A stretch of DNA of 64,000 bases from Nibricoccus sp. (lineage in GTDB: Bacteria > Verrucomicrobiota > Verrucomicrobiia > Opitutales > Opitutaceae). Location of the stretch: contig JASGHG010000001.1 in NCBI GenBank assembly GCA_047602425.1, forward strand, positions 672,001 through 736,000, in the 5' to 3' direction. A program made the position numbers and the translations under genes. Under the pieces are notes generated by a model, which saw only the letters and a list, made by a program, of their open reading frames with translations, did no database searches and was not told where the DNA came from. This document shows, piece by piece, positions 3,494 to 46,527 of the stretch. Each line of letters opens with the position of its first letter. The stretch's first letter is position 1.

Positions 3494-3730
3494 AGCAGCG
3501 GGGGTTTGGGATATCGATATCTGGCGGTGATGACGCCGAGTTGTGGCAGGGCAAAAAGCAGTCAACAAAGGGTTCTCCTCAGCAACGGGCTCGTTGCGCA
3601 CATCGTTGAATGGAGCGATTTTTTCCACCCATGACAACGCCCGGAGCGTCCCGTAAATACGGGACAGGGCTTCCGCGTAACGATTCCCAAGTCGGACATC
3701 GATCGATTCTGCGCCGCCAATGGCGTGTCG

Positions 3731-22816: not shown

Positions 22817-25800
22817 ATGACAACAAACTTGGGTGAGGGAACTGGTTTAGTTCGCATTGCAATTCTGGCTCTCGGACTGGCCGTGGCTAGCGTGCCTGCT
22901 CTGGTCGCCGACGAAATGAACCGCCGGAACGAAGCACTGCCGAATTTCGACGCCAGAGTTTTAAGCGACTCCAGCGAGGTGAAGGCCAAGGCCGATACAA
23001 CCGGTGCACCTAAAGCAGCGGCCATTAAAATGCTCCGAGATCGCGTACGTAACTTGCAAGTTGACCGCGATGCCGTCACCGGCTCCCCGGCTTTCATCCG
23101 CTCGACCGATTTTTTTTTGACTGGCCCTGCTGGCAGGGGCGGAGCCACGAACGATGCCCAGCTTCAAGCCATTCCCGTCGGCGATCCCAATCGCACCGTA
23201 AAAGCGTTTATCGACAGCAATGCGGACGTTTTTGGTCACAACTCATTCGTCCTGCAAGGCACACGCGTGCGCCGCGACTATGCCACTGCGCACAACCATA
23301 CACGAACCATCGTCCTAGAACAACAATTGGGCGGCATTCCCGTCTTCGAAGCTTTCCTGCAGGCCCATTTCACCGAAAAAGACGAACTTATCAATATCTC
23401 CAGTACCCTGATGGCCGATCCCACAGCCGCCGTGCAAAATGGCGCGCTCGACGCCGCTTCGCGCCAGGGCACGCCGAAAATTGCCGCAGTCACCGCCGTG
23501 GTCGCAGCAGCCAGAAATATCGCCGAATCGATCACGGAACTCGACCTCTCGACAGCCAGCGCGCCTGTCGGAGCAAATTTTGTGCAACGTTTTAATGCCA
23601 CTGCCCTCAGCGATATCAGCGTCAGCCTCACCTGGCTACCGCTCAACAGCTCCTCGTTACGCCTCAGCTGGGAAGTGCTGCTTTTCAGCAAACGTCAAAA
23701 CGCGATGTACCGCGTGCTTGTCGACGCGGTTAGCGGTGAGTGTTTAGTTCGTCATTGCCTCACCGACGACATCAGCCCGGCCACCTATAACGTTTTTACC
23801 GGCGACAACCCCTCGCCTTTTTCGCCTGGATATTCAGTTCCAACGAGCACCCAGCCTTCCACCGTTTCCCGTACGCGCGTCACGCTTTCCGCCCTCGATA
23901 CGACCGCCTCGCCCAACGGCTGGATCGACGATGGGATAACCGAAACACGCGGCAACAACGTCAATGCCCACACCGATATCAACGCCGATAACCAGCCCGA
24001 TTTGCCTCTCCCCCAATCCAGCGGCAGCGATCGCGTCTTCGACTTCCCGCTCGATCTTGCCAAATCGCCAGACACCTACAAAGACGCCGCCGTGGTGAAC
24101 CTTTTTTATTGGTGCAACTGGATGCATGATCGCCTCTACCAGCTCGGTTTCACCGAAGCCGCGGGAAATTTCCAAAACAACAATTTCGGACGCGGCGGCA
24201 TCGGCAACGATGCCGTCCAAGCCGATGCCCAGGATGGCTCCGGCCGCGATAACGCGAACTTTTCCACACCGCCAGACGGACAGCCAGGTCGCATGCAAAT
24301 GTACATTTTCAGCTCTCCAACGCCCAACCGCGACGGCGACTTGGACGCGGAGATTATTCTCCATGAATACACCCATGGCCTGAGCAACCGCCTCGTCGGT
24401 GGCGGTGTTGGCTTGAGCGCCCTTCAATCGCGCGGCATGGGCGAAGGCTGGTCGGACTTCTACGCCCTCACCCTCCTGAGCCAGCCCGGCGACGACATCA
24501 ACGGCTGTTATGCCTCCGGCGCGTACGCCTCCTACCTGCTCGACGGGAGCTACGACCAAAATTATTACTACGGTATCCGTCGCTATCCTTATACGACCGA
24601 TATCTCTAAAAATCCGCTCACTTTTAAAGACATCGATCCTACGCAAGCCAGCGCGCACACTGGCGTTCCACGCAGCCCGATCATTGGCAACACCGCCAAC
24701 GAAGTCCACAACATGGGCGAAGTCTGGTGCGTCACACTCTGGGAAGCTCGCGCCAACCTCATCGCGAAGCACGGCTATGCCACCGGTAACCAGCTGATCC
24801 TTCAACTGGTGACCGATGGCATGAAACTCGCGCCGGCGAATCCCACTTTCCTTCAAGCTCGTGACGCCATTCTTCAAGCGGACCTGGTCAACAATGCTGG
24901 CGCCAACAAAAACGCGCTATGGGCCGCCTTTGCCAAACGCGGCTTGGGCGCTGACGCCTTTTCGCCTGCGAGCAGCACCAGCACCGGAGTAGCGGAGGAT
25001 TACAATTTGCTCGACGATCTTGCCCTTACGCCGGTGACCGCCACCACCGCCACGGGACCCATCGGCGGACCTTTCAGCCCAGTCGATCAGACATTCACCC
25101 TAACCAACATAGGCACTACCACGCTAACGTGGGCCGTCAGCAAAACTCAAAACTGGCTGACGCTTAGCCCTTCTTCCGGCTCCCTGGCTCCTGGAGCAAG
25201 TGTCTCTGTCGTCGCCTCGATCAACACTACGGCAAGATCCCTCACCGCAAATACGTTTACCGAGACCCTCTCATTTACCAATTCTTCCAGTTCTGCCGTC
25301 CGAATCAGGAAAATCACTCTCGATATCCAACCACCGCGCATCGCTATTTTTCCCCTCGATAGCAACCCCGGCTGGGCCACGTCCGGCGAATGGGATTTCG
25401 GCCGTCCCACCGGACAAGGCGGCGTTTACGGTTTTCCCGATCCATCGAGCGGAGCCACCGGCGCCAACGTTTTCGGCGTCAATCTCAATGGCAACTATTC
25501 CACGGCCTACGGCGATCCTTACTACCTAACCGCCGGTCCTTTTAACTTCACTGGTATCACCGGCGTACGCCTCCAGTTCCAGCGCTGGCTCAACAGCGAT
25601 TACCAGCCGTGGGTCTATGACACCGTCGAAGTGTCGAATGACGGCACCACATGGACCGAGCTATGGAACAATGGCACCGTCCCTATCACCGATTCGAAGT
25701 GGGCCAAATACCAGTACACCATGGCCGCCGTGGCCGACAACCAGCCCACCGTCTACGTCCGTTGGGGCTATCGCATTGGCCGGACTTCAGGTGCCTTTCC

Positions 25801-28800
25801 CCTCTCAGGTTGGAACATCGACGACATCGAACTACTCGGCACTCCCGCCATTGCCGCTACTCCCAACGTCACGATCACTCCATCGACCACCAGCCTTCCT
25901 CTCGGTAAAACCGCCAGCTTCACTGTCACCGCCACCTGCAGCGCCAATCTCGGCGAAGTCGGCCTCGAAGCCTGCGATTCCTCCGGCACACCCACTGCCG
26001 TGCTGAACACAACCACCCTCTCCGCCCAATATACCGGGCAAACCTACACTTGGACACCCACGGTCGCCGGTACGTACTATTTCCGCGGATACGCCAAGGA
26101 TGCATCGCTCTCCCAGACCGTCCGCACCGTACCTATCACCACCGTTACAGTCGCCCCGCAGATCGAACCTCCCTCTTTCTCCCCTCCTGCCGGATCGTAC
26201 ACGAGCGCACAGTCAATCACTATCAGCACAGCATCTACTGGAGCATCCATCCGATATACCAGCGATGGAACGACTCCTACTGCCACCACAGGCACCCTCT
26301 ACACCGGTCCCATTGCTATCGCCAACACCACCACCTTGAAGGCAATTGCCTATGGCAACGGAATGCTCGACAGCCAGACAAGCACCGCCACCTACAAGAT
26401 TCTGATTCCTCCCAACAATCTCGCCACCGTCTCAGATCGGACGGTCCAGGCTGGAGGCACCGCCTCTTTCGTTGGTTCGGCATCCGGTTACCCACCGCCC
26501 ACCATTAAATGGCAGCTCTCCCTCGATGGCGGTATTTCCTGGTCGGACCTGACTAACACCGCTCCCTACTCTGGGGCAGGCAGTCCCCAACTCGTCGTCA
26601 GCAGCGTGCCCCTCTCGCTCAGCGGAAGCCAATATCGCTTTGTCGCGATAAACTCCCAGGGCACCGGCGTCAGCAATGTCGCGACCCTCACGGTGACCCC
26701 CACCACTTCCGGGCCTCCCGTATTCTCGATCCAACCGCCCGATACCACGGCGCTCGAAAGCACTGTCCTCAATCTTTACGGCAGCGCCACCTCGTCCACC
26801 GCGATCACCTACCAATGGTACAAAGATGACATCGTCATCCCAAACGCTACCCTGCCTTCTTTCGCAAAAACCGCGCCGAATTCCACCGACAGCGGGACCT
26901 ACAAACTGGCGGCCACAAACGCTGCGGGCACCACCTTTAGCCGCAACGCCACCGTCGTTATCACTCCTGCCACACCGCCGGTCTTTGTCGTCCAGCCCAT
27001 AAGCCCGCACGCCTACGCAGGCGACGACCTGACCTTGATCGCCTCCGCTGCCGCACAACCATCCGCAACCTACCAATGGTACAAAAACGGCGCGGCGATT
27101 TCCGGGGCCACAACCAACACTCTGGTCTTGCTCAACCTTTCCGCGGCCAATGACGGCGAAGTGTATACCGTTAAAGCCACGAACGTCGCGGGCACCGCCA
27201 CCAGCAACGAGGCCACGCTGACCGTCTACGCCGCGGACAGCGGCAAAGCCCTCGGCATCGCGCCAGCCACCCGCACCGTCGGCCCCGGACGCGTCGTTTA
27301 TCCCATCACCCTCCGATCCAATAACACTTGGACAGCGACAACAAATGTTAAGTGGATCGCTCTTTCCCTAACCAGCGGAAAATATAGCCGCACCCTGGAG
27401 GTAACGGTATATCCAAATCCTTTTCCTGTGGAACGCACTGCCACGATCACCATCGGCCAGCAAACACACACGTTGACGCAGCGCGCGGCTGGCACACCCA
27501 TTCGAGAACTCTGGGCGACTGGGGCGAACGATTTTGGCCAGCTGGGCGATTATCGCGTGCCTCCACTCATCTATCCCGGCAAATTCGACAATTCGGTACA
27601 AGCCGTCGCCGCTGGCATGGATCATACTCTTTACGTGAAAACGGACGGCACTCTCTGGGTTACCGGCTCCAATCTCCTTGGACAGCTCGGTACCGGCCTT
27701 ATCATCGATCAAGCGTTCCCCACCCAAATTGCCACCAACGTCAAAGCCGTCGCCGCCGGTTACTACTTCAGCCTGTTCCTGAAAAAAGATGGCACGCTCT
27801 GGGGTTGCGGTGACACCTCGAAAGGCCAGCTCGGCACCTCAGCACAACTCAACTACCCCAGACCCGTGCAGTTTGCCTCCAACGTCACTGCGATCGCCGC
27901 AGGCAGCTACCAGACTTACTTCATCAAGACCGACGGCACACTCTGGGGCTGCGGTTTCAATAATTACGGCCAGCTTGGCGATGGCACCAAAACGGACCGT
28001 TCCACCCCAATGCAGATCGCAACCGATGTTGTGTCGGTAGCATCTGGTTTTGGTCATGCTCTGTTTGTGAAGTCCGACGGCACGCTCTGGTCCATGGGCT
28101 ATAACTCCAGCGGCCAGCTCGGCGACGGTACCCAAACAAACCGATCCACGCCCTATCAGGTAGCCACAGACGTAGCGACGGTGGCGTGCGGTAACTATCA
28201 CACCCTGTTCGTTAAAACCGACGGCTCGCTCTGGGTCATGGGTTACAATGCCTACGGGCAACTCGGCGACGGCTCCTTCGCCAACCGCCTCACACCCATC
28301 AGCATCACCACAAACGTTCAATCCGTGGCCTGCGGCAAATACCACTCCATCTTCATCAAAACCGACGGCTCGCTCTGGACCACGGGCGAGGACTTCTACT
28401 ACAAACTCGGCGACGGGCGTACGACCTCACAGCCAACGCCCGTCAACGTGGCAACCAACGCCCAACTGGCTGCCGCCGGTCAAAACCACACCCTTTTTAT
28501 TAAAACCGACGGCACACTCTGGGCCGTAGGTGCCAATAATAAAGGTCAGCTCGGATATGCCAGCCCTGGCATGGAGTTGCGCGCCACTCCGATTTGCATC
28601 GCCTCCGAGGTTCTCACCGCTGCCGCAGGCGATAATCACACGCTTTATATAAAAACCGACAACACGTGTTGGACGGTCGGCGAGAACAGCGCCGGACAAC
28701 TTGGCGACGGCAGCACCCTCGTCCGTTGCGATCCAGCCCAAATCGACAACAATGCGAAAGCCGTCAGCGCCGGCCTGAATCATAGCCTCCTGCTCAAATC

Positions 28801-30001
28801 GGACGGCACGCTGTTCACCTTTGGAAACAATAACTCGGGCCAACTCGGCGACGGCACCAGTCAAAATCTCCGTCCATCGCCAACCAAGATCACCACCAAC
28901 ATCGCTGCTGTCTCCGGAGGAGCTTTGCACAGCCTCATGCTGAAAACCGACGGCTCGCTTCTGGCCACTGGCCACAATTTTTATGGGGAGCTTGGCGATG
29001 GTTCGACGATGGATAAAACCCGCCCGGTCCAAGTCGCCACCGACGTCCAGTCCTGCGCAGCCGGGAGCAGTCACAGTGTCTTTGTGAAATCGGATGGCTC
29101 CCTCTGGGGCATGGGTTTCAACTACGACGGCGAACTGGGCGATGGCACCCTCTCGCCACGCTCCAGCCCTGTCCAGATCGCTGGTTCCTTCCTTGCGGCC
29201 GCAGCCGGAGCTTCACATAGCCTCTTTTTAAAAGACGACCACACCGCCTGGTCGACCGGCGTCAACTTATATGGACAACTTGGAGACAGAACCAGCACCT
29301 CGCGATTCACACCCGTCTCAGTCCTCGCCAACACCCAAGCCATGGCCGGAGGACAATATCACAGCCTCTGGCTAAAAATGGACCACACCCTCTGGGGTTG
29401 TGGCGACGGTACTTCCGGGCAATTGGGCACTGGCGCTACCAACATTCAGCCCTCCGCCCCCATTGTCCTCGCATCGAATGTCGAGTCGGTCTTTGCAGGC
29501 AGCACTCATACCCTCTTCATCGCCAATGGCGACATCCGCACGACACCTCCACCTATTCCCACTGTAGTCAGTTTCACACCGACAAAATTCACCGCTGGCA
29601 GCAACGTAACCATTTCGTGCGCAGGTTTGGGCAGTAACCCCGTGTTCTACTTCAACGGCGTGGAAGCGGCCGCCACCTATGTCACCTACAATCCCAGCGT
29701 GTTCACTGCCACTGCTCCCGCCAACCTCACCGAAGGTAAAATCACGATCAGCACAGTGGACGGCTATGGCCTCAGTTCCACCAGCTACACCGTCGGCAGC
29801 GATTCCTCTTCATCTTCCTCCAGTAGTTCCAGTTCGTCGGGTAGTGGTTCGTCATCCTCGAGCTCCGGGTCCCCGCAGCCTCCGGCTCCGAATCCAGGCG
29901 GTGGCGGTGGTGGTGGAGGCGCTCCCGGTCTAGCCTACTTGGTCGCACTCGCCGTTGCAGGTGTAGCCCGTGGTTTTTCACTCTGGGCTCGCCGACGTTG
30001 A
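22817..30001 (+). CDS. Giant secreted M36 (fungalysin) metalloprotease paralog 1: propeptide, M36, BACON, beta-sandwich and chitobiase-C-like domains, 3 Ig, 14 RCC1 repeats, IPT, Ser linker, GlyGly-CTERM-like tail
   Basis: 2394 aa; signal peptide; ETRGNNV, GFTEAAGNFQ, HEYTHGLSNRL, GMGEGWSDF, GIRRYPY, EVHNMGEVW; 14 counted 'DGTLW..G.N..GQLG' repeats; ends GGGGGGGAPGLAYLVALAVAGVARGFSLWARRR. Confidence 0.9.
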   Translation: MTTNLGEGTGLVRIAILALGLAVASVPALVADEMNRRNEALPNFDARVLSDSSEVKAKADTTGAPKAAAIKMLRDRVRNLQVDRDAVTGSPAFIRSTDFFLTGPAGRGGATNDAQLQAIPVGDPNRTVKAFIDSNADVFGHNSFVLQGTRVRRDYATAHNHTRTIVLEQQLGGIPVFEAFLQAHFTEKDELINISSTLMADPTAAVQNGALDAASRQGTPKIAAVTAVVAAARNIAESITELDLSTASAPVGANFVQRFNATALSDISVSLTWLPLNSSSLRLSWEVLLFSKRQNAMYRVLVDAVSGECLVRHCLTDDISPATYNVFTGDNPSPFSPGYSVPTSTQPSTVSRTRVTLSALDTTASPNGWIDDGITETRGNNVNAHTDINADNQPDLPLPQSSGSDRVFDFPLDLAKSPDTYKDAAVVNLFYWCNWMHDRLYQLGFTEAAGNFQNNNFGRGGIGNDAVQADAQDGSGRDNANFSTPPDGQPGRMQMYIFSSPTPNRDGDLDAEIILHEYTHGLSNRLVGGGVGLSALQSRGMGEGWSDFYALTLLSQPGDDINGCYASGAYASYLLDGSYDQNYYYGIRRYPYTTDISKNPLTFKDIDPTQASAHTGVPRSPIIGNTANEVHNMGEVWCVTLWEARANLIAKHGYATGNQLILQLVTDGMKLAPANPTFLQARDAILQADLVNNAGANKNALWAAFAKRGLGADAFSPASSTSTGVAEDYNLLDDLALTPVTATTATGPIGGPFSPVDQTFTLTNIGTTTLTWAVSKTQNWLTLSPSSGSLAPGASVSVVASINTTARSLTANTFTETLSFTNSSSSAVRIRKITLDIQPPRIAIFPLDSNPGWATSGEWDFGRPTGQGGVYGFPDPSSGATGANVFGVNLNGNYSTAYGDPYYLTAGPFNFTGITGVRLQFQRWLNSDYQPWVYDTVEVSNDGTTWTELWNNGTVPITDSKWAKYQYTMAAVADNQPTVYVRWGYRIGRTSGAFPLSGWNIDDIELLGTPAIAATPNVTITPSTTSLPLGKTASFTVTATCSANLGEVGLEACDSSGTPTAVLNTTTLSAQYTGQTYTWTPTVAGTYYFRGYAKDASLSQTVRTVPITTVTVAPQIEPPSFSPPAGSYTSAQSITISTASTGASIRYTSDGTTPTATTGTLYTGPIAIANTTTLKAIAYGNGMLDSQTSTATYKILIPPNNLATVSDRTVQAGGTASFVGSASGYPPPTIKWQLSLDGGISWSDLTNTAPYSGAGSPQLVVSSVPLSLSGSQYRFVAINSQGTGVSNVATLTVTPTTSGPPVFSIQPPDTTALESTVLNLYGSATSSTAITYQWYKDDIVIPNATLPSFAKTAPNSTDSGTYKLAATNAAGTTFSRNATVVITPATPPVFVVQPISPHAYAGDDLTLIASAAAQPSATYQWYKNGAAISGATTNTLVLLNLSAANDGEVYTVKATNVAGTATSNEATLTVYAADSGKALGIAPATRTVGPGRVVYPITLRSNNTWTATTNVKWIALSLTSGKYSRTLEVTVYPNPFPVERTATITIGQQTHTLTQRAAGTPIRELWATGANDFGQLGDYRVPPLIYPGKFDNSVQAVAAGMDHTLYVKTDGTLWVTGSNLLGQLGTGLIIDQAFPTQIATNVKAVAAGYYFSLFLKKDGTLWGCGDTSKGQLGTSAQLNYPRPVQFASNVTAIAAGSYQTYFIKTDGTLWGCGFNNYGQLGDGTKTDRSTPMQIATDVVSVASGFGHALFVKSDGTLWSMGYNSSGQLGDGTQTNRSTPYQVATDVATVACGNYHTLFVKTDGSLWVMGYNAYGQLGDGSFANRLTPISITTNVQSVACGKYHSIFIKTDGSLWTTGEDFYYKLGDGRTTSQPTPVNVATNAQLAAAGQNHTLFIKTDGTLWAVGANNKGQLGYASPGMELRATPICIASEVLTAAAGDNHTLYIKTDNTCWTVGENSAGQLGDGSTLVRCDPAQIDNNAKAVSAGLNHSLLLKSDGTLFTFGNNNSGQLGDGTSQNLRPSPTKITTNIAAVSGGALHSLMLKTDGSLLATGHNFYGELGDGSTMDKTRPVQVATDVQSCAAGSSHSVFVKSDGSLWGMGFNYDGELGDGTLSPRSSPVQIAGSFLAAAAGASHSLFLKDDHTAWSTGVNLYGQLGDRTSTSRFTPVSVLANTQAMAGGQYHSLWLKMDHTLWGCGDGTSGQLGTGATNIQPSAPIVLASNVESVFAGSTHTLFIANGDIRTTPPPIPTVVSFTPTKFTAGSNVTISCAGLGSNPVFYFNGVEAAATYVTYNPSVFTATAPANLTEGKITISTVDGYGLSSTSYTVGSDSSSSSSSSSSSSGSGSSSSSSGSPQPPAPNPGGGGGGGGAPGLAYLVALAVAGVARGFSLWARRR

Positions 30002-30047
30002 TCCTGCGCGCATGGTGGAAGCTCACCTTCTTTCCATGCGCGAATAG
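29861..30047 (+). repeat. Direct repeat copy 1 (sorting tail plus downstream hairpin); copy 2 at 37763-37951
   Basis: Near-identical ~187 nt, including an exactly identical 81-nt run (29944-30024 = 37849-37929). Confidence 0.95.
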
Positions 30048-30144
30048 GGCGCTGGTTATGTTGATTGGTTCTGCCATCGAACGCGCACAGAAAAATTCAG
30101 TCACAGGGCACGCCTCATCCAATCCATTGTCGTCAGCGCCGCGC
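30036..30144 (+). pseudogene. Rhombosortase gene remnant
   Basis: ATG CGC GAA TAG (intact copy ATG CGC GAA CAG at 37940), then a segment similar to 38152-38246 (LVMLIGSAIERAQK vs LFVLIGWALERTQK), with an internal deletion and indels. Confidence 0.85.
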
Positions 30145-30220
30145 CCGTTCAAAACGCCGTTTGTGCTGCTCGTGCCTGCGCGCCGATCGAAACTAAAACA
30201 GCCGTCCGCGGCAAACAACC
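30139..30220 (+). pseudogene. Remnant of the 3' end of the amino acid permease gene
   Basis: RPFKTPFVLLVPA matches permease RPFKTPFVPIVPA (22412-22454). It is joined by a deletion to RRSKLKQPSAAN, matching RRSKLNQPTAGN* (22564-22603). Confidence 0.85.
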
Positions 30221-30430
30221 GTGCGGGATAGGTCGTCCTTCCGCCAACCTCCCACTTCCGACACGATTCTCCTCCAGAGGTCCCTGGGCATTTTATCGTG
30301 GGTATTCCCGGCCTAGTCCGATTAGTATATCTTCACAACGCAATCATTTACCTAATATTCCATCTATAGAGTAGTTTGGTAGGTACAAAGCCCCTCTGCG
30401 GGAGCAGTGTTTTCACGTTCTATCCAGCAA

Positions 30431-33400
30431 ATGAATATCTCCTTGGGTGAGGGAAAACGTAGTTGCCTCGCAATTCTGGCTTTGAGCCTGGCCGCTTTCG
30501 GCGCGCCGATTTTGAACGCCGCCGAAAAAGACACCATATACAAGGCCCTGCCGAATTTCGACCTAAGGTCCGAAGCCACCGCCGGTCAGGCCACAGCCAG
30601 AGCCGAAACCATGGAAGGCACCAAGACAACAGCAGCTGTCGAGGCACTCAAAAGCCGCGTGAGCAAAGTTCAGGTCGATCATCACGCCATTACTGGGGCC
30701 CCCTCCTTCATTCGCTCGACCGACCATTTCCTTACCGGACCTGCCAGCCGAGGAAGCGCCGGCAGCAACGCTCCTCTCCAAGCTATTCCCACCAGCGATC
30801 CATACCTTCCGATAAAGGCGTTCATCGACGGGAATCCCGAGCTCTTCGGTCATTCCTCCTCCCTGCTCGCCGGCACTCGCACCCGCCGCGACTATGTCAC
30901 CCCGCATAGCCGAACCAGAACTGTCGTATTGGAACAAGTTTTCAACAACATCCCCGTCTTCGAGGCGACGCTCCAGACCAGTCTCACCCATAACGACGAA
31001 CTCATTAACATCTCCAGTTCGCTCCTCGCCGATCCCGCCCAAGCCGTCAAAACCGGCACCCCCGAAACCTCCGCGCGTCAAGGCACGCCAACGATCGCCG
31101 CCGTCGCAGCCATCGTTGCCGCCGCCGCCAACATCGGTGAAGTCATCAACGAACTCGACCTCACCCGCACCAGCGCCACCGTCGGCAACGAACAACTCCA
31201 GCGGTTCCACGCCATTCGACTCGGCGACACCAAAGCCAGCCTGACTTGGCTCCCGATGAACGCCTCCTCTCTGCGCCTCTGCTGGCAGGTCGAGCTCACC
31301 AGCAAGACCCAGGGTGCCATGTACCGTCTCCTCATCGACGCCATCACCGGCGACGCCCTTCTCCGCCACTGCCTCACCGAGGATATCTCCCCCGCCTCCT
31401 ACAACGTCTATTCCGCCGGCAGCCCATCGCCGTTCATGCCCGGTCATTCCACACCTTCCAACGTCCAGCCCACCGTCGTCCCTCGCACGCTCGTCACCCT
31501 CTCCGCCCTCGATACCACCGCCTCCCCCAACGGCTGGATCGACGACGGAATCACCGAAACCCGCGGCAACAACGTCGACTCCCACGCCGATGCCAACGCC
31601 GACGACGCCCCCGACCTCCCACGCCCGCAATCCACCGGCGCCAACCGCGTTTTTAATCCCGCCCTCGACCTGAACCAATCACCATCGACCTACAAGGATG
31701 CCGCCGTCGTCAACCTTTTCTACTGGTGCAATTGGATGCACGACCGCCTCTACCAGCTCGGCTTCACCGAGGCTGCCGGCAACTTCCAAAACGACAACTT
31801 CGGCCGCGGCGGTCTCGGCAATGACGCCGTCCAAGCCGACGCCCAGGATGGCTCCGGCACCAACAACGCCAACTTCTCCACCCCTTCCGATGGCTCCCCC
31901 GGACGCATGCAGATGTTCATCTTCAATTACGCCGCGCCCAACCGCGATGGTGACTTCGACTCCGAAATCGTCCTCCACGAATACACTCATGGCCTCTCCA
32001 ACCGCCTCGTTGGTGGCGGCGTCGGCATGAGCGCACTTCAATCACGCGGCATGGGCGAAGGCTGGTCCGACTTCTACGCCCTCGCACTCCTCGCTCCACC
32101 CTCAGCCGACATCAATGGCGTCTATCCCACCGGCGGCTACGCCACCTACCTCCGTGGAAACATCACTGAAAACTACTACTACGGCATCCGCCGCTACCCC
32201 TATTCCACCGACCTCCTCAAAAGCCCGCTCACCTACAAAGACATCGACCCGAACCAGGCCAGCCCGCACACCGGCGTCCCGCGCAATACCGCAACACCCA
32301 CCACCGCCAATTCCGTCCATAACATAGGCGAAGTCTGGTGCAACATGCTCTGGGAAGCCCGCGCCAGTCTCATCGCCAAACACGGCCATGCCATCGGCAA
32401 TGAACTCATGCTCCAACTCGTTACCGACGGCATGAAACTCGCCCCCGCCAATCCCACCTTCGTCCAAGCCCGCGACGCCATCATCCAGGCCGACCTCGCC
32501 AAAACGTCCGGTGCCAACAAAAGCGAACTCTGGACCGCCTTCGCCAAACGCGGTCTCGGCGTCGACGCCACCTCCCCCTCCAACGCCACCACCACCGGCG
32601 TCTCCGAAAGCTACGACGTTCCCGACGACCTCTCCGTCACCCCCGCGACGCCCTCCATCTCCGGCGGCGCAGCTGGCGGACCCTTCACCCCTGCAACCAT
32701 CACCTACACCCTAACCAACAAGGGCACCGCCAACCTCAACTGGACCGTGTCCACCACGCAGCCTTGGGCCCATTTGGACCTGACAAGTGGTTTACTGGCT
32801 CCCGGCGCCACGGCCACCGTCACCCTGACAATCAACGCCTCCACGCTCGCCAATGGCGTCTACATCACCAACACAACCTTCATCAATGCAACCAGCACGG
32901 CCACTCGCAGCCGCCAGACAACCCTCACCGTCATTCCGCCTCCAGTCTTTTCCTCCCACCCCGCCAACGTCAGCACCTACGCAAGCAACTTCTTCTCGCT
33001 CTCCGCCTCCGCCACCTCCACCGCTGGCACCCTCACCTACCAGTGGAAAAAAGACGGCGTCCCCGTCGTCAACAACACACGTATCTCCGGAGCCACCACC
33101 ACCTACCTCAACGTCACCAACGCCAAGGTCTCCGACTCCGGCTCATATACCCTCGTCGCCTACAACGGTGCCACCAGCACCAGCAACGCCGCCGCTGTAA
33201 CCATTACTCTGCCTCCCCCGCCCACCATCACCACCCAGCCCAACAGCTTCACCATCTACGCCAGTAACAGCCTTAGCCTTTACGCTTCCGCCAATAGTGT
33301 CACTTCTGCCACCTACCAGTGGTTCAAAGACGGTGTCGCCATCTTCGGAGCCTCCTCCGGCAGTTACTACAAATCTCCTGCCACTACCGCTGACGCCGGC

Positions 33401-36400
33401 ATCTACACTTTCGTTGCCACCAACGCTGGCGGCTCCACTACCAGCTCACCGGCCACCATCATAGTTAACACCGCCTCGACTCCGGTCATCAACAGCCAGT
33501 CCACCAACCAGACCGGCTATATCGCCAATACCCTCAATATTAGCGCAACCGTTACCTCCAACATCACGGCGACCTACCAATGGTACAAAGACGGCGTCGC
33601 ACTCGTCAACGCCACCAGCCACATTTCCGGTGCCACCAGTACCGATCTCTATCTCTCCAATCTTCAGGCCTCCGACGCCGGCACCTACACCTTCATCGCC
33701 ACCAACGCCACCGGTTCCACCACCAGCGCTCCCATCGTCGTCACCGTCATTTTGCCGCCGCTCCCCACCATCACCACCCAGCCGTCCAACCAAACCCTCT
33801 ACGCCGGCGCCAACCTATACCTTTACCTCGGCGCCTCCACCAATGGCCCCGCCACCTTTCAATGGTACAAAGACGGCGTCGCCCTCGCCGACGCCACCGG
33901 CCACATCTCGGGAGCCACGACAAACTACGCCACGATCTCCCCCACCCTTGCAGCCGACGCCGGCACCTATACCTGCACCATCACCAACGCCGCCGGTTCC
34001 GTCACCAGCACCGGCGCCACCATCACCTTCAACATACCAGCCGCACCCACGCTAAACTCCCAAAGCACCGCCAGCATCACCCAGCAGGCAGGCACCTCCT
34101 TCAGCCTTTCGGTCTCCGCCAGCGGCAACGGCTACCTTGCCTACCAGTGGTACAGAAACGGCGTCGCCCTCGTCGGCGATTCTCGCATCTTCGGCGCTAC
34201 CGCCAGCAACTGCTTTATCCACAGCAGCCGCGTGGCCGATTCCGGCAGCTATACCTGCACCGTCACCAATGCCGGCGGCTCCGTCACCACCCTGCCCGTT
34301 TCCGTCACCATCACGCCGCCTCCTGCCCCCACCATTTCCTCCCAACCAGTCACCACCTACTCCGCCTACGCTGGCAATACCTTAACCAGCTACTACATCT
34401 ACGTCAACGCCAGCGGTACCGACCCTCTCGCCTACCAGTGGTACAAGGACGGCGCTCCTCTCGCGACCGACACCCGAGTCACTGCCAATACGTTCCAACT
34501 CACCATAAAAAACCTGCAAGCTTCCGACGCCGGCGTGTACCGCGTCGTCGTATCCAACGACGGCGGTTCCGTCACCAGCACCAACTGCACGATCACCATC
34601 GTTGTCCCCGCCGCCCCGGTCTTCCTCACTCATCCGTCCAACATGACGGTCCTTGAGGGCACCACCAACTCCATCGGCTGCAACGTCAACGCCAATGGAA
34701 CCATCACCTACCAGTGGTACAAGGACGGCGCCGCCATCCCCGGAGCGACCACCAACACCTACACCAAAGCTGCCGCCCTCACCGATGCCGGCCAATACTA
34801 CGTCACCGCTACCAACGCCGGCGGCACCGCCACCAGCAACACCGCCACCCTCACCGTCACCCCCGCCACCGCGCCTATCATCACTCTTCATCCCCTTTCC
34901 CAAGCCGTCTATGCCGGTGACAGCCTGAACCTCACCGCCGCCGCCATCGGCGCACCCTTGCCCACCCTCCAATGGTACAAAAACGGCACCGCGATTAGCG
35001 GCGCCACCACCAATACCCTCTCACTCACCAACCTCACCGCCGCCAGCAACGGCAACACGTACCACCTCGTCGCCACCAACGTCGCCGGCACCGCCACCAG
35101 CACCCCCGCCACCCTCACTATCGAATCATCAACCAGCACCAAAGTTCTCTTCCTACGCCCCGCCACGCGCACCGTCGGCTGCGCCCGCGTCACCTACCCA
35201 CTCGCCATCTACACCAAGGCCCCGTGGACCGCCTCGTCCGATGCCGCTTGGGTAAAACTCAACGTCACCAGCGGCGCCCGGGGCCGCGGTATTGAAATCA
35301 CCGTTGCGCCCAACCCATACCCCGTCGAGCGCACCGCCACCGTCACCATCGGCGAACTCACCCACACCCTCACCCAGCGCGCCGCCGGCACCCCCGTCAC
35401 CGAACTCTGGGCCACCGGTGCCAACGACCTCGGACAACTCGGCGACCACCGTCACCCACCCGTCACCTTGCCCGCCATCGTCGACAGCGACGTCATTGCG
35501 GTCTCCGCCGGCCGCTCCCACACCCTCTATATCAAATCCGACAACACTCTCTGGGGCATTGGCCACAACAACTCCGGCCAACTCGGCCTCGGCAACACCA
35601 CCAGCCAGCAGTTCCCCGTCCAGATCGCCACCGGCGTCAAAGCCATCGCCGCCGGCTACTACCACTCCGCCTTCATCAAAACCGACAACACCCTCTGGAC
35701 CTGCGGTGCTAATATCTACGGCGAAATTGGCGACGGCACCACCCTCGTCCGCACTTCTCCCGTCCAGATCGCCACCGACGTCAAAGCCGTCTCCGCCTGC
35801 GGTCTCTTCACTCTCTTCATCAAAAACGACAACACCCTGTGGGGAACCGGCCATAACAGCTACGGCCAGCTCGGCGACGGCACAGGCGAAAACCGCAAGA
35901 CTCCCTGGCAAATTGACACCAATGTCGCCCACATTGCCGCCGGCTATGTCCATACCCTCTACGTAAAAATCGACGGCACCCTCTGGGCCACCGGCTACAA
36001 CAACATGGGCCAACTCGGCGACGGCACCAACGTCGACAAAAATACGCCCACCCTTATCACCACCGACATCGCCAAAGTTTACGCCGGCTATTACCATTCC
36101 CTCATTCTGACAAAGGATTCCTCCCTCTACAGCTGCGGCTATAATTTCGACGGGCAGCTTGGCATCGGCGGCTACTCCAGCGCCAACACCCCGACCTTCG
36201 TCGCCTCCTATTTCGCCTCCGCCGCTGGGGGTGCCTACCATACGTTGTTCCTCGCAGCCGACGGCACTACCCAGTCCTCGGGCGAAGGCAGCTACTACAA
36301 ACTCTGCACGGGCGGGACCACAACCAACTCCTTCCGCTACACCGTCGCCAGTGGCGTCAAGGCCGTCGCCTGCGGCCGCGACAATTCCTTCCTCCTCAAA

Positions 36401-37906
36401 ACCGATGGCACTCTCTGGGCCGTCGGCGACAACGAATACGGCCAGCTCGGCTATGCCAGCCCCGGCAACGACACCCGATTCACCCCGGTCAGCATCGCCT
36501 CCGACGCCGCCACCGCCGCCGCTGGAGACAACCACACCCTCTTCCTCACCACCGGCGGCACCCTCCTCTCCGCTGGCGATAACACCTACGGCCAGCTCGC
36601 CAACGGCTCCATTCTCGGAACCAGCAGTCCCGTCCCCGGTTTCACCGGCCTGAAGGCGCTCGCCGCCGGTTACAACCATACCCTGCTCCTAAAAAACAAT
36701 GGCGACCTCTGGGCTGCAGGCTGCAACAACTACTACCAGCTCGGCGCCGGTTACTCCAGCTACACAACGCTCCCCGTCCAGATCACCACCGACATCGCCG
36801 CCCTCTCCGCCGGCTACCACCACAGCCACTTGCTCAGGACCAACAACAACCTCCTCGGCATGGGCCGAAACGACTACGGCCAGCTCGCCAACAATTCCAC
36901 CGCCAACCTCATACGCCCGACCCAGGTCGCCACCGCCGTCTCCTCTGTCGCCGACGGCGCCTATCACACCCTCGTCATCAAAAACGACGCCACCCTCTGG
37001 GCTGCCGGCGACAACACCTATGGCCAGATCGGCAATGGTACCAACACCACCGCCTATACCCCCGTCCAGATCGCCGGCAGCTACCTCGCCGCCGCCGGAG
37101 GCAACAACCACTCACTCTATCTCAAATCCGACAACACCGCCTGGGCCGCCGGTGACAACAGCTCCGGCCAGCTCGGTGACGGCACCTACACCGACCATCC
37201 CTCCCCGGTTCAGGTCCTCACCAACGTAAAAGCAATCGACGCCGGCCGGTACCATAGCCTTTGGCTCAAAACCGACAATACCCTCTGGGCCGCCGGCGAT
37301 GGCTCATCCGGCCAGTTCGGCAACGGCAGCACCAGCTACCGCAGCACCCCGGCCAAAATCGCGGCCAATATCCAGTCCTTCAAGGCCGGCGGCGCCCATA
37401 CCCTCTTCATCGCCAGCGCCGACTACCGAACCAACATTATTGCCCCAACCATCACAGCCGTCGCTCCCGCCACCTTCGCCGCCGGAGCCCAGGTCACCAT
37501 CACCGGTTACAACTTCAATAACATCCTCAGCGTCACCTTCAACGACACCGACGCCACCAGTTATACAACCAACTCCTCCACTCAAATCACCGCGGTGGTC
37601 CCCGCCGTCGACACCACCGCCTGCATCATCAAGGTCGCCAACTTCGAAGGCATCGGCACTTACCCGCAAAGTTCCAGCTCCTCATCCAGCAGCAGCTCCT
37701 CCTCCTCATCTTCCTCAAGTAGTTCGTCATCTTCCTCCTCCAGTTCCTCTTCGAGTTCCTCCAGCTCCGGATCCCCGCAGCCTCCGGCTCCGAATCCGGG
37801 CGGTGGTGGTGGCGGCGGCGGTGGCGCTCCCGGTCTTGTCTACCTGGCCGCACTCGCCGTTGCAGGTGTAGCCCGTGGTTTTTCACTCTGGGCTCGCCGA
37901 CGTTGA
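30431..37906 (+). CDS. Giant secreted M36 (fungalysin) metalloprotease paralog 2: propeptide, M36, BACON, 8 Ig, 14 RCC1 repeats, IPT, 33-Ser linker, GlyGly-CTERM-like tail
   Basis: HEYTHGLSNRL/GMGEGWSDF; 8 counted QW.K/R.G Ig repeats; 14 RCC1 repeats; ends GGGGGGGGAPGLVYLAALAVAGVARGFSLWARRR. ATG 30431 chosen because its context atccagcaaATG matches paralog 1 (track starts 30407). Confidence 0.9.
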   Translation: MNISLGEGKRSCLAILALSLAAFGAPILNAAEKDTIYKALPNFDLRSEATAGQATARAETMEGTKTTAAVEALKSRVSKVQVDHHAITGAPSFIRSTDHFLTGPASRGSAGSNAPLQAIPTSDPYLPIKAFIDGNPELFGHSSSLLAGTRTRRDYVTPHSRTRTVVLEQVFNNIPVFEATLQTSLTHNDELINISSSLLADPAQAVKTGTPETSARQGTPTIAAVAAIVAAAANIGEVINELDLTRTSATVGNEQLQRFHAIRLGDTKASLTWLPMNASSLRLCWQVELTSKTQGAMYRLLIDAITGDALLRHCLTEDISPASYNVYSAGSPSPFMPGHSTPSNVQPTVVPRTLVTLSALDTTASPNGWIDDGITETRGNNVDSHADANADDAPDLPRPQSTGANRVFNPALDLNQSPSTYKDAAVVNLFYWCNWMHDRLYQLGFTEAAGNFQNDNFGRGGLGNDAVQADAQDGSGTNNANFSTPSDGSPGRMQMFIFNYAAPNRDGDFDSEIVLHEYTHGLSNRLVGGGVGMSALQSRGMGEGWSDFYALALLAPPSADINGVYPTGGYATYLRGNITENYYYGIRRYPYSTDLLKSPLTYKDIDPNQASPHTGVPRNTATPTTANSVHNIGEVWCNMLWEARASLIAKHGHAIGNELMLQLVTDGMKLAPANPTFVQARDAIIQADLAKTSGANKSELWTAFAKRGLGVDATSPSNATTTGVSESYDVPDDLSVTPATPSISGGAAGGPFTPATITYTLTNKGTANLNWTVSTTQPWAHLDLTSGLLAPGATATVTLTINASTLANGVYITNTTFINATSTATRSRQTTLTVIPPPVFSSHPANVSTYASNFFSLSASATSTAGTLTYQWKKDGVPVVNNTRISGATTTYLNVTNAKVSDSGSYTLVAYNGATSTSNAAAVTITLPPPPTITTQPNSFTIYASNSLSLYASANSVTSATYQWFKDGVAIFGASSGSYYKSPATTADAGIYTFVATNAGGSTTSSPATIIVNTASTPVINSQSTNQTGYIANTLNISATVTSNITATYQWYKDGVALVNATSHISGATSTDLYLSNLQASDAGTYTFIATNATGSTTSAPIVVTVILPPLPTITTQPSNQTLYAGANLYLYLGASTNGPATFQWYKDGVALADATGHISGATTNYATISPTLAADAGTYTCTITNAAGSVTSTGATITFNIPAAPTLNSQSTASITQQAGTSFSLSVSASGNGYLAYQWYRNGVALVGDSRIFGATASNCFIHSSRVADSGSYTCTVTNAGGSVTTLPVSVTITPPPAPTISSQPVTTYSAYAGNTLTSYYIYVNASGTDPLAYQWYKDGAPLATDTRVTANTFQLTIKNLQASDAGVYRVVVSNDGGSVTSTNCTITIVVPAAPVFLTHPSNMTVLEGTTNSIGCNVNANGTITYQWYKDGAAIPGATTNTYTKAAALTDAGQYYVTATNAGGTATSNTATLTVTPATAPIITLHPLSQAVYAGDSLNLTAAAIGAPLPTLQWYKNGTAISGATTNTLSLTNLTAASNGNTYHLVATNVAGTATSTPATLTIESSTSTKVLFLRPATRTVGCARVTYPLAIYTKAPWTASSDAAWVKLNVTSGARGRGIEITVAPNPYPVERTATVTIGELTHTLTQRAAGTPVTELWATGANDLGQLGDHRHPPVTLPAIVDSDVIAVSAGRSHTLYIKSDNTLWGIGHNNSGQLGLGNTTSQQFPVQIATGVKAIAAGYYHSAFIKTDNTLWTCGANIYGEIGDGTTLVRTSPVQIATDVKAVSACGLFTLFIKNDNTLWGTGHNSYGQLGDGTGENRKTPWQIDTNVAHIAAGYVHTLYVKIDGTLWATGYNNMGQLGDGTNVDKNTPTLITTDIAKVYAGYYHSLILTKDSSLYSCGYNFDGQLGIGGYSSANTPTFVASYFASAAGGAYHTLFLAADGTTQSSGEGSYYKLCTGGTTTNSFRYTVASGVKAVACGRDNSFLLKTDGTLWAVGDNEYGQLGYASPGNDTRFTPVSIASDAATAAAGDNHTLFLTTGGTLLSAGDNTYGQLANGSILGTSSPVPGFTGLKALAAGYNHTLLLKNNGDLWAAGCNNYYQLGAGYSSYTTLPVQITTDIAALSAGYHHSHLLRTNNNLLGMGRNDYGQLANNSTANLIRPTQVATAVSSVADGAYHTLVIKNDATLWAAGDNTYGQIGNGTNTTAYTPVQIAGSYLAAAGGNNHSLYLKSDNTAWAAGDNSSGQLGDGTYTDHPSPVQVLTNVKAIDAGRYHSLWLKTDNTLWAAGDGSSGQFGNGSTSYRSTPAKIAANIQSFKAGGAHTLFIASADYRTNIIAPTITAVAPATFAAGAQVTITGYNFNNILSVTFNDTDATSYTTNSSTQITAVVPAVDTTACIIKVANFEGIGTYPQSSSSSSSSSSSSSSSSSSSSSSSSSSSSSSSSSGSPQPPAPNPGGGGGGGGGAPGLVYLAALAVAGVARGFSLWARRR

Positions 37907-37951
37907 TCCTGCGCGCATGGTGGAAGCTCGCCTTCTTCCATGCGCGAACAG
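37763..37951 (+). repeat. Direct repeat copy 2 (sorting tail plus hairpin over the rhombosortase start)
   Basis: Matches 29861-30047. Confidence 0.95.
37912..37946 (+). promoter_or_regulatory. RNA hairpin sequestering the rhombosortase start codon
   Basis: CGCGCATGG (37912-37920) pairs perfectly with CCATGCGCG (37938-37946), extended by GGAAG/CTTCT; ATG 37940 lies in the 3' arm; no U-tract. Confidence 0.55.
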
Positions 37952-38599
37952 ATTAAAGACATCCTCGACCCCAAACGGCTGCCCTGGCTTTACCTCGCGA
38001 TCTGCGTGGTGGCGACGTTTGCCGTCGCGATTCCGTCAATTCGGCCCGCGCTTGTCTACAATCGCGCCGCCATCGCCCAGGGCGAATTGTGGCGCATCTG
38101 GACCGGGCATCTCGTGCATTTCGGCTGGCCGCACGGCCTCGCCGATGGATCGCTGTTTGTGTTGATTGGTTGGGCTCTCGAACGCACCCAGAAAAAATTC
38201 AGCCACTGGTCGCTACTCATCCAGCCCGTCATTATCAGTGCCGCGCTCTTCTGGTTCGACCCCAAGATGAACATCTATGGCGGCCTCTCCGGCCTCAACG
38301 TCGGCCTGCTCGTTTTTCTCGCCTGCCGCGGCTGGCACAAAGATCGCCTCGATTGGTTCTGGCCTGCGATTCTGCTCATCCATGTTGTCGAAATCTTCCT
38401 CGAAATCCGCAACCAAGGTCACGGCGGCGGCGCCATTCGTTTCGACGATTCGTCCATCCGCGTGGCGACGATCGCGCACATTGGCGGCGCGCTCTACGGC
38501 GTGGCCAGTTGGGGCGTTCTTGCCTTGCAAAGACAGAAACCAAAAGACGCTTCGTCCGACAACAAAACGCCAGGCGACGACAATTCTAGGGGCGCGTGA
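37940..38599 (+). CDS. Rhombosortase-type rhomboid intramembrane serine protease
   Basis: 219 aa; Y.R.AI.QGELWRIWTGHLVH..W.H, catalytic YGGLSG (Ser) and AHIGG (His); directly downstream of two poly-Gly-tail proteins. Confidence 0.88.
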   Translation: MREQIKDILDPKRLPWLYLAICVVATFAVAIPSIRPALVYNRAAIAQGELWRIWTGHLVHFGWPHGLADGSLFVLIGWALERTQKKFSHWSLLIQPVIISAALFWFDPKMNIYGGLSGLNVGLLVFLACRGWHKDRLDWFWPAILLIHVVEIFLEIRNQGHGGGAIRFDDSSIRVATIAHIGGALYGVASWGVLALQRQKPKDASSDNKTPGDDNSRGA

Positions 38600-45597: not shown

Positions 45598-46527
45598 CTA
45601 CGATTGTGCTTTTGCGGCGTGAAAACGTTTCAAGGCGGGAGAAACCAACTCTCGGACCAAGGCTGAAAAATCGAGTCCGACACATTTCGCGCTCATCGGC
45701 AGCAGGCTGGTCTCTTTCATGCCGGGCAGCGTGTTGATTTCGAGTAAAAACAATCCGTTTTTCTCAGAAAAAATAAAATCGACGCGCGCATAGTCCCGAC
45801 AACCACACGCAGCGAACGCGGCTTCAGCTGCCGAACACACTTGCGCGGTCTGTGCGTCGCTCAAATTTGCGGGCGCGCTGTATTCCGTCATGCCCTTCGT
45901 GTACTTGCTCGTAAAATCATAGACGCCGGACTTCGGTTTAATCTCCACGATGCCCATCGCGCGACCGTTGAGCACGCCAACCGAAAGTTCGCGACCGAAA
46001 ATCCGCTGCTCGATAATCCAGTTGCCGCTCGTCACGGTCACGAGCGCTTTTTCCAGTTCCACGCGTCCGGCGATGATATGAAGCCCCACGCTGCTGCCCT
46101 GGTCGGTCGGTTTGAGCACGAGTTGCTCGTTGAGCGTAGCCAAGACTTCGTCCGCCGAAGGTTTTTTGTCAGCCGAGAAAACCATATCCTTCGCTCCGCC
46201 CACGCCTCGCTTCGCCGCGGCGCGCTTGGTCAGGACCTTGTCCATGGTCAAAGCGCTTGAGGCTGCGTCACAGCCCGCATAGTGCACACCGGCAGAATCG
46301 AGCAGGCGCTGCATGCCGCCATCTTCGCCGAATGTCCCGTGTAGGGTTGAAAACACTACATGGCGGGCCGGATTGAGTTCGTCGGGCAACTCCTCGCTCT
46401 TGATATCGAAAAGCTTCGTCGGGAAATGCCGGGCCAGCGCAAGCGCACTCGCCGCGCCGGAACCCAGGGAAACTTCGCGTTCAGCGGAAACTCCGCCGGA
46501 AAAAACAGCAATGATCGGTTCATTCAC
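45598..46527 (-). CDS. ddl: D-alanine--D-alanine ligase
   Basis: GGVSAEREVSL, LHGTFGEDG, MDK, GSSVG, YDFTSKY, RVDF, LEINTLPGM. GTG 46527 overlaps the upstream stop (ATG 46542 is an alternative). Confidence 0.96.
   Translation of the reverse strand: MNEPIIAVFSGGVSAEREVSLGSGAASALALARHFPTKLFDIKSEELPDELNPARHVVFSTLHGTFGEDGGMQRLLDSAGVHYAGCDAASSALTMDKVLTKRAAAKRGVGGAKDMVFSADKKPSADEVLATLNEQLVLKPTDQGSSVGLHIIAGRVELEKALVTVTSGNWIIEQRIFGRELSVGVLNGRAMGIVEIKPKSGVYDFTSKYTKGMTEYSAPANLSDAQTAQVCSAAEAAFAACGCRDYARVDFIFSEKNGLFLLEINTLPGMKETSLLPMSAKCVGLDFSALVRELVSPALKRFHAAKAQS

Follow-up and report, generated by a model that had tools for sequence, protein, structure and literature searches.

Why should a small rhomboid protease be encoded directly behind two giant secreted metalloproteases, both of which end in a run of glycines, a hydrophobic segment and a basic cluster? 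The question is raised by a locus of Nibricoccus sp. (Verrucomicrobiota, Opitutaceae; assembly GCA_047602425.1, contig JASGHG010000001.1), found at positions 22817 to 38599 of the 64,000-nucleotide (nt) stretch analyzed here (positions 672,001 to 736,000 of the contig, hereafter the window, whose numbering is used throughout unless a genome contig is named). A preliminary description of this DNA had proposed that the rhomboid is a rhombosortase acting on a divergent GlyGly-CTERM sorting signal, and that the locus serves to process and surface-anchor very large protease-adhesins. Our analysis confirmed the observation and partly supported its interpretation. We are confident, though short of certain, that the locus combines a rhombosortase with two predicted substrates bearing poly-Gly tails, and that it belongs to a GlyGly-CTERM-type system whose tail is divergent and lineage-specific. 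Rhombosortase and GlyGly-CTERM were defined in silico by Haft and Varghese (2011; PMC3237569), who describe the Gly motif as "often SGGS", and VesB of Vibrio cholerae provides the experimental case, in which translocation to the cell surface depends on type II secretion (Gadwal et al., 2018; PMC6219818).

The rhomboid reading frame (37940-38599, + strand; 219 amino acids (aa), six predicted transmembrane (TM) helices) begins 33 nt past the stop of the second metalloprotease gene (37906). When scored against curated models, it reached 101.9 bits on the rhombosortase model TIGR03902 (RrtA; cut-off 84), or 102.9 bits in a six-frame search, and 24.4 bits on the GlpG model TIGR04239, which has a cut-off of 250. 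The predicted catalytic residues, Ser117 (codon 38288-38290) in a Y-x-G-L-S-G motif and His180 (codon 38477-38479) in an A-H-x-x-G motif, were present in 100% and 98%, respectively, of 91 related rhombosortases; the position of the rhomboid and its intact Ser and His are as given in the preliminary description. We take these residues to be the counterparts of Ser201 and His254 in GlpG, PDB entry 2XTU being titled as an S201T active-site mutant. An AlphaFold2 model made with 31 relatives (pLDDT 90, pTM 0.84) has six long helices, and its best fold matches in the PDB (Foldseek) were the GlpG proteins of E. coli and H. influenzae (E 2.4e-6, TM-score 0.64-0.76); a phmmer sequence search of the PDB with the rhomboid returned 0 matches. 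The enzyme shares with E. coli GlpG (2XOV, 2IC8) the six-helix rhomboid fold, with the Ser at the start of TM4 and the His in TM6, but the two are only 21-24% identical in the structural alignment, and the window enzyme lacks a cytoplasmic N-terminal domain. Judged by these sequence features, the window rhomboid is a rhombosortase and not a GlpG-like enzyme. Relatives at up to 82% identity, from Nibricoccus sp. and an Opitutaceae bacterium, are already named "rhombosortase" by NCBI and JGI, and others carry the label "rhomboid family GlyGly-CTERM serine protease", so the enzyme itself is not new.

The two genes upstream were characterized by translation and domain scan. The first, M36-1 (22817-30001, + strand; 2394 aa, P0001), encodes a giant secreted fungalysin-type metalloprotease in which a signal-peptide-like N-terminus and an M36 domain with the motif HEYTHG are followed by BACON and immunoglobulin-like (Ig) domains, about 12 repeats of the RCC1 type, a linker of poly-Ser and the tail. 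Its paralogue M36-2 (30407-37906, + strand; 2499 aa, P0002) has 8 Ig repeats, and alignment with M36-1 points to the ATG at 30431 as its likely start. Each protein scored 413 bits on Peptidase_M36, and the signal-peptide-like N-terminus, HEYTHG, BACON and Ig domains and about 12 RCC1 repeats were found in M36-2 as well. They are 64% identical across the N-terminal 817 aa and 51% identical across the C-terminal 1144 aa. M36-1 ends in a Ser-rich linker followed by PQPPAPNPGGGGGGGGAPGLAYLVALAVAGVARGFSLWARRR, and M36-2 in a linker of 37 Ser followed by PQPPAPNPGGGGGGGGGAPGLVYLAALAVAGVARGFSLWARRR. The predicted sorting tails (M36-1, 29867-29998, + strand; M36-2, 37769-37903, + strand) thus share GSPQPPAPNP, a Gly run, APG, a 13-residue hydrophobic core and RGFSLWARRR. 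Translation bears out the tail architecture previously described, except that the Gly runs are 8 and 9 residues long rather than 7 and 8.

M36 proteases are rare in the family, being found in 4 of the 121 Opitutaceae genomes that we sampled. The M36 giant of another genome in the genus has GG-AP at its C-terminus, followed by a TM segment and basic residues in a cluster, which is the plain "GlyGly" form of the tail, while the M36 giants of two rhombosortase-free genomes have no TM tail and end in a repeated Asp-rich module. Such suffix behavior is what would be expected of a sorting signal. A curated family of rhombosortase-dependent M36 proteases, NF038111, already exists, as do its myxosortase- and T9SS (type IX secretion system)-dependent sister families NF038112 and NF038113, so that M36 proteases as clients of a rhombosortase are already a curated concept. 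M36-1 and M36-2 resemble NF038111 in carrying an M36 domain on a large secreted protein with a C-terminal sorting signal, but differ in their Ig, BACON and RCC1 architecture and in their tail; they scored 325.1 and 320.1 bits, respectively, against a cut-off of 1700, and the catalytic region alone matched. Two minor features of these genes may be recorded here. The GC skew falls to between -0.20 and -0.40 at 24000-38000, over both M36 genes and far beyond the rest of the window, presumably because the coding strand is rich in Thr, Ala, Ser and Pro codons. The M36 giants of the two rhombosortase-free genomes are encoded by open reading frames (ORFs) of 4280 and 3135 aa (L143, G385:C16; L144, G339:C63), and their tandem Asp-rich modules resemble dockerins or EF-hands.

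The tail is not confined to the M36 pair. The genome was available as one contig (C1) of 5.16 Mb, and all of its six-frame ORF ends of at least 80 aa (n = 29,450) were scanned. A strict tail pattern was found at 18 of these ends, all of one build, and a relaxed rule combined with inspection gave 30 tails, from which an ORF with a DUF1501 domain (C1:5045554-5047137) was dropped as a likely false positive, having a different build and no Ser linker. A profile, A1, built from the remaining 29 tails recovered all of them and one more (30 ORF ends at E ≤1.7e-4, best 9e-15), with a further candidate at E 0.014, and the tail therefore occurs far beyond chance. The M36 tails scored E 1.7e-4 (M36-1) and 8.9e-8 (M36-2). 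Typically, 20-40 residues of poly-Ser, often with a Pro-rich stretch, are followed by a run of 2 to 9 Gly, A-P-[S/G], 13 hydrophobic residues, an Arg and 2-6 more basic residues. The Gly run comprised 4-9 residues in 27 of the 29 tails, APS or APG was present in 15, and acidic residues past the TM segment were seen in 4. In 26 of the 29, the first basic residue followed the last Gly at a distance of exactly 16 residues, a regularity that would be unlikely in a generic membrane anchor. A simple hydropathy rule detected an N-terminal hydrophobic segment in 27 of the 29 carriers, and the mid-protein maximum over 19 residues was below 1.8 in 28.

Proteins carrying the tail are spread over many unrelated Pfam families. 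Glycosidases of families GH43 (two), GH44 and GH53 were found, along with pectin enzymes, namely a PL11 rhamnogalacturonan lyase, two pectinesterases and two pectate lyases, with one protein having a pectinesterase as well as a pectate lyase domain. The proteases include four with a reprolysin-like metalloprotease domain (one of them weak) and the two M36 proteins, and the other carriers comprise four delta-60/DUF5122 propellers, a VIT-VWA protein, an esterase, two "choice-of-anchor Q" proteins and several proteins without an assigned family. The tail is thus a family signal common to about 30 otherwise unrelated secreted proteins. Of the earlier interpretation, the identity of the rhombosortase and the GlyGly-CTERM-like nature of the tails are supported, whereas the locus represents just a part of the system, the M36 pair being 2 of about 30 carriers.

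If the tail is a substrate of rhombosortase, the two should be found in the same genomes. In a sample of 301 genomes from the phylum, with at most 25 candidates scored per genome and a tail profile threshold of E ≤1e-5, 28 genomes had a rhombosortase above the cut-off, 20 of them in the family of the window. The tail profile matched 12 of these 28 genomes, all 12 in that family, and none of the 273 others. In the family sample of 121 genomes, where the threshold was E ≤1e-4, a rhombosortase above the cut-off was present in 66 genomes, with 1-3 copies each. The tail was found in 33 of the 121 genomes and in 18 of the 63 sampled genera, with up to 40 matches per genome, and its distribution was again one-sided (33/67 with a rhombosortase, 0/54 without).

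Non-redundant rhombosortase loci from the family genomes (91) were classified by the ORF lying directly upstream on the same strand, which bore a poly-Gly/AP tail at 18 loci (class A), a VIT-VWA-type tail at 17 (class B) and a tail preceded by H-K-P-G-Y-T-G at 16 (class C); 32 loci had no tail protein upstream and 8 were unclear. On a clade tree (quick maximum likelihood, SH-aLRT support only, midpoint root), the window enzyme belongs to a clade of 31 rows, clade A (SH-aLRT 100), which has 13 class-A neighbors and none of class B or C. Class B gathers in a clade of 26 rows (support 99; 17 class-B loci), and class C is mainly found in two further groups. The neighbor labels required 30 changes on the tree, compared with a mean of 51.3 after shuffling, and none of 200 shuffles gave a value as low. 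Both class-C upstream proteins that were scored matched the rhombotarget lipoprotein model TIGR04179 (394 and 340 bits, cut-off 150).

When the family genomes were sorted by the clade of their enzyme, the tail was found in 27 of 29 genomes with clade A, in 6 of 9 with sister or unresolved rhombosortases alone, and in 0 of 29 with clades B/C alone, as in 0 of 54 without any rhombosortase. Of the two clade-A genomes that lacked a profile match, one is 76% complete, and in the other (G156) a class-A tail can be seen immediately before the enzyme gene. The tail thus tracks the paralogue clade of the window enzyme and is seen only in genomes with a rhombosortase, and a link between tail and rhomboid clade, put forward as a check in the preliminary description, was borne out.

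The class-A proteins upstream of clade-A enzymes were mostly proteases: among 11 examined, 8 were M10 matrixins, most of them about 480-500 aa long with PPC and Ig domains, 1 was an S53/S8 protease, and 2 were NHL-repeat proteins. A protease gene followed by a clade-A rhombosortase is therefore a recurrent arrangement across several genera, and in the genome of the window the giant M36 pair takes that upstream position. Tandem rhombosortases of different clades were seen at two places (L076/L134, G117:C23:273812-280700; L062/L073, G390:C6), and the G117 pair sits behind two M10 metalloprotease genes with poly-Gly tails.

The junction between tail and enzyme carries a trace of its own history. 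At the end of M36-1, a 188-nt block (29860-30047) matches 37762-37951, at the end of M36-2, in 174 of 191 alignment columns (91% identity). This block runs from the last 140 nt of the M36 coding sequence through the spacer into the rhombosortase gene, of which it takes in the first 9-12 nt, and identity drops to about 50% just upstream and to 18% just downstream of it; the 91% DNA identity also contrasts with the 51-64% identity of the M36 proteins. Because the block includes the rhombosortase start, a relic of that gene start, ATG GCG GAA TAG, lies after M36-1 as well (30036-30047, + strand, 34 nt past the M36-1 stop). The alignment indicates that the whole junction, from tail to rhombosortase start, was copied or converted in one piece, probably through gene conversion or at the boundary of a duplication.

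A structure prediction for the complex of enzyme and tail gave an ipSAE of 0.49 (median of 3 runs), compared with 0.00 for the best of 3 controls. The runs, for which we supplied alignments of our own, shared at least 88% of their contacts, and the pLDDT of the tail partner was at least 67. Of 157 solved complexes, 116 attain the ipSAE mark, as do 2 of 215 mismatched pairs, but within the range up to 0.60 it is reached by just 18 of the 157 solved complexes and by both of the mismatched pairs that pass. Moreover, solved complexes of GlpG with peptides exist, so that the pass may mirror likeness to those structures. The prediction lends weak support to the pairing of enzyme and tail.

Taken by analogy with VesB (PMC6219818), these data suggest how the system might operate. 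Sec would export the tail proteins, and the tail would retain them in the inner membrane, with its Arg cluster on the cytoplasmic side and its Gly run facing the periplasm. The constant spacing of 16 residues between the last Gly and the first Arg would place the scissile bond at a set depth. Rhombosortase would cut at the end of the Gly run and expose a C-terminal Gly, which would probably be joined to an ethanolamine-containing lipid (in VesB, a glycerophosphoethanolamine-containing moiety). A type II-like secretion system encoded elsewhere would probably then move the protein to the cell surface, where the long Ser linker would serve as a stalk. Cleavage, lipid anchoring and surface display are what we infer for the tail proteins as a group.

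Several observations weigh against this reading of the locus, beginning with the fact that all of its steps beyond the co-occurrence of tail and enzyme rest on analogy. The curated GlyGly-CTERM model TIGR03501 (22 positions, cut-off 15.5 bits) matched neither M36 tail at E ≤10, and its best scores across the genome were 16.6 (583275-583334), 14.5 and 11.3 bits, so that one ORF end, and one of about 30 tails, lies above the cut-off. When the tails and 28 of the tail proteins were scanned with NCBIfam and Pfam, no sorting-domain model matched, and the sole match in the tail region, to the end of the SVAGG GlyGly-CTERM family, was at chance level (E 0.24). The tripartite GlyGly-CTERM-like build, with Gly motif, TM segment and basic cluster, is nevertheless found in all 29 aligned tails, and having the same architecture while the curated model fails, the tail is a divergent GlyGly-CTERM variant; its difference from the classic motif had been correctly noted before. 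The genome counts are also to be read with care: owing to relatedness among the genomes, the co-occurrence counts exceed the number of truly independent events, and profile A1, trained on the genome of the window alone, misses some divergent tails that are visible by eye, for example those upstream of rhombosortases in G156, G285, G341 and G373.

The arrangement of genes raises further objections. No tail gene lies upstream at 17 of the 31 clade-A loci, and an orthologue in the same genus, 83% identical to the window enzyme, has no tail gene upstream although the pilB-obg-ftsZ synteny downstream is kept. The adjacency of the M36 genes is therefore specific to the genome of the window, and the protease-rhombosortase arrangement is not old there. 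The window contains no secretin or other type II secretion gene. Elsewhere in the genome we found three secretins and four large GspE/PilB-type ATPases, including a secretin-ATPase pair at C1:2844689-2848403 that gave the best GspD match, with 298 bits against a cut-off of 351; an outer-membrane route is thus available elsewhere in the genome, and the tail proteins may use it. Finally, the genome holds three rhombosortases above the TIGR03902 cut-off and four exosortases, and with multiple enzymes of both kinds the assignment of the tail to the window enzyme rests on co-occurrence and adjacency rather than on exclusion.

The main alternative to anchoring is free release after cleavage, in which rhombosortase sheds the enzymes from the inner membrane into the medium and no lipid is re-attached. 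Many carriers are polysaccharide lyases and hydrolases, which are often free exoenzymes, and the study of VesB (PMC6219818) describes partial release of that protein and the freeing of unmodified VesB after cleavage by GlpG. According to the same source, however, the only characterized rhombosortase yields a modified C-terminal Gly and retention at the surface. A poly-Ser stalk of 20-40 residues is also better suited to the spacer of a tethered protein, and for mere release a plain signal peptide would suffice, making a costly conserved tail and a dedicated enzyme superfluous. On balance, we regard release as unlikely. Retention without any cleavage, in which the tails would fix the enzymes to the inner membrane on its periplasmic side and the neighboring rhomboid would be unrelated to them, deserves hardly any credence. 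A hydrophobic stretch and a basic cluster alone do make a stop-transfer anchor, but such an anchor would need neither the Gly run nor A-P-[S/G] nor the exact spacing, and 13 residues make a short core for spanning a bilayer stably. Nor would confinement to genomes with one rhombosortase clade be expected of it, or a position directly upstream of the clade-A enzyme in several genera, and enzymes that degrade pectin and protein would be of little use in the periplasm.

A different enzyme might instead cut the tails, whether an exosortase, the third rhombosortase found only in the genus, or the VIT-VWA-linked paralogue, leaving the window rhomboid to serve just the M36 pair or something else. The number of candidate enzymes in the genome and the many clade-A loci without an adjacent target would fit such an arrangement, and A-P-[S/G] before the TM segment sits where P-E-P does in PEP-CTERM. 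Exosortases are present in 117 of the 121 family genomes, but the tail in 33, so that exosortase presence does not discriminate, and we rejected exosortase (4 copies here) as a specific partner of the tail. The PEP-CTERM model TIGR02595 matched none of the poly-Gly tails, its 4 matches in the genome being to other ORFs. As for the paralogues, the tail is missing from all of the genomes that have clades B/C alone, and the third clade is restricted to the window's genus, while the tail extends over 18 genera. Processing by a different enzyme is therefore quite improbable, and cleavage of the tails by the clade-A rhombosortase is the reading that we carry forward.

The genome holds two other rhombosortases. 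The second lies directly downstream of a VIT-VWA protein of 674 aa (G000:C1:2688086-2690766; L020, L002, L037). The tail of this protein (L020) has a different flavor, G6-ALD and a longer hydrophobic stretch, and the same pairing was seen at 17 of the 26 loci of its clade; on TIGR03788, L020 scored 204 bits, below the cut-off. The third (C1:2898994-2899455; L001, L038) belongs to a clade seen in the window's genus alone (3 rows, SH-aLRT 98), and no tail-bearing gene adjoins it. A tail of the class-C, rhombotarget-lipoprotein type was not found in the genome of the window. VIT-VWA "vault-like" proteins with alternative sorting tails (TIGR03788) are described by Haft and Varghese (2011; PMC3237569) in the legend to their Fig. 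3C, and two other clades of the family resemble such dedicated pairs (TIGR04179, TIGR03788) in lying directly downstream of proteins of these kinds. The clade of the window differs from them in being tied to a many-member poly-Gly/AP tail and in having proteases as adjacent targets (M36 here, M10 or S53 elsewhere).

One may go a step further and propose, tentatively, a rhombosortase code with three channels, in which separate clades serve the rhombotarget lipoprotein, the VIT-VWA protein and the poly-Gly-AP tails. Clade A might then be a housekeeping sorter that lipid-anchors a surface "degradome" of 30-40 members on poly-Ser stalks, with the variable Gly run providing a register-tolerant site of cleavage and transamidation and the 16 residues acting as a ruler from the cytoplasmic Arg. 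This proposal is possible rather than probable; if it is true, the clade-A "degradome" of pectinases, arabinanases and giant proteases would be the verrucomicrobial counterpart of sortase-anchored cellulosomes and of T9SS-anchored carbohydrate-active enzymes.

Compared with the known system of TIGR03902 and TIGR03501, the Opitutaceae system is alike in that the enzyme passes the model, that the tail combines a Gly motif, a TM segment rich in Leu, Ala and Phe and a basic cluster, and that one enzyme has many unrelated targets with signal peptides, among which proteases are prominent and whose tail co-occurs strictly with it. The TM segment of GlyGly-CTERM is reported to contain 34% Leu, 13% Gly, 10% Ala and 8% Phe (PMC3237569), and the tail core here (29% Leu, 20% Ala, 10% Phe, 7% Val, 5% Gly) is similarly rich in Leu and low in Val and Ile, with a higher share of Ala and a lower one of Gly. 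The tail differs in its motif, having mostly 4-9 Gly and then A-P-[S/G] in place of the frequent SGGS, behind a poly-Ser stalk. The 2011 survey (PMC3237569) gives a maximum of 13 targets and two rhombosortases in 1 of 104 genomes, whereas here there are about 30 targets, up to 40 matches in a relative, and three paralogous rhombosortases in one genome. In that survey no target was adjacent to the enzyme when a genome had more than two targets, except in a genome with two rhombosortases that each lay beside a target, while in the present case targets adjoin the enzyme despite the many others in the genome.

The phylum entries of the same survey are Opitutus terrae, whose single target lies next to its rhombosortase, and a Verrucomicrobiae genome in which the enzyme has no recognizable target, for which "possibly a divergent form" was considered; the Nibricoccus genome, by contrast with these single-target and "orphan" genomes, is a multi-target one. 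The preliminary description had guessed the phylum correctly and knew of no characterized case in it; with the O. terrae pair already listed in silico, the phylum is not new for the system. Full-text literature searches that linked rhombosortase with Opitutaceae or Verrucomicrobiota turned up only PMC3237569 and a 2023 preprint by Haft, which mentions the phylum once in another context. The system is accordingly a lineage-specific variant of a known surface-sorting system and not a new kind. What is new is the tail variant with its ruler-like spacing, the set of about 30-40 clients rich in pectinolytic enzymes, the pairing with one of three clades, and the copied junction, as judged against the article PMC3237569, whose Table S1 may list the tail of the O. 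terrae target.

Rhombosortase sorting has been tested in Vibrio only, and for a few other Proteobacteria there are hints from bioinformatics or proteomics. The Opitutaceae rhombosortase is named by annotation pipelines, but its clients escape them because the curated tail model fails on them, and recognition of the tail would re-annotate about 30 proteins in each genome as predicted to be surface-anchored. For the tail-carrying soil and freshwater Opitutaceae, the predicted anchored set covers much of the enzyme set for degradation of pectin and arabinan, and the tail is therefore relevant to the way in which these polysaccharide degraders retain enzymes and products on their surface. The three clades, each with its own kind of adjacent client, lend themselves as a natural system to the study of substrate choice by rhomboids, and the 16-residue spacing and variable Gly run are determinants that can be tested directly.

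Two other giant surface-type proteins are encoded in the window. One of 1890 aa (3798-9470, - strand) contains a PL4 rhamnogalacturonan lyase, Ig and MBG domains and PATR repeats, and ends in ...EPVSTEPLN, with no poly-Gly tail. The second is encoded at 2-3637 (- strand), and its C-terminus lies beyond the edge of the window.

On the other side of the rhombosortase lies a PilB/GspE-type ATPase gene (38600-40309, - strand), which is convergent with it and touches its stop. The zero gap had been pointed out in the preliminary description and is real, while the functional link that it suggested did not hold. We rejected the ATPase as a part of the system: it is encoded on the opposite strand, closes a dcw-obg gene string, adjoins the rhombosortase at 2 of the 31 clade-A loci, both in the window's genus, and falls below the cut-offs of both models (GspE, TIGR02533, 544.8 against 630.25 bits; PilB, 575.5 against 675.65 bits). 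The convergent contact is kept in G168, of the same genus, and not in other genera, and no pilus or secretion genes lie beside the ATPase. The minus-strand string that the ATPase ends comprises mraW, ftsI, murE, murF, mraY, murD, a LysM gene, ftsW, murG, murC-murB, ddl, ftsQ, ftsA, ftsZ, obg and a hypothetical gene. Within this dcw cluster, murC and murB are fused in a 777-aa ORF (46524-48857, - strand), which joins a MurC-like Mur ligase of three domains to MurB, represented by its FAD-binding and C-terminal domains, and a 354-aa protein with three LysM domains (51174-52238, - strand) is encoded between ftsW and murD.

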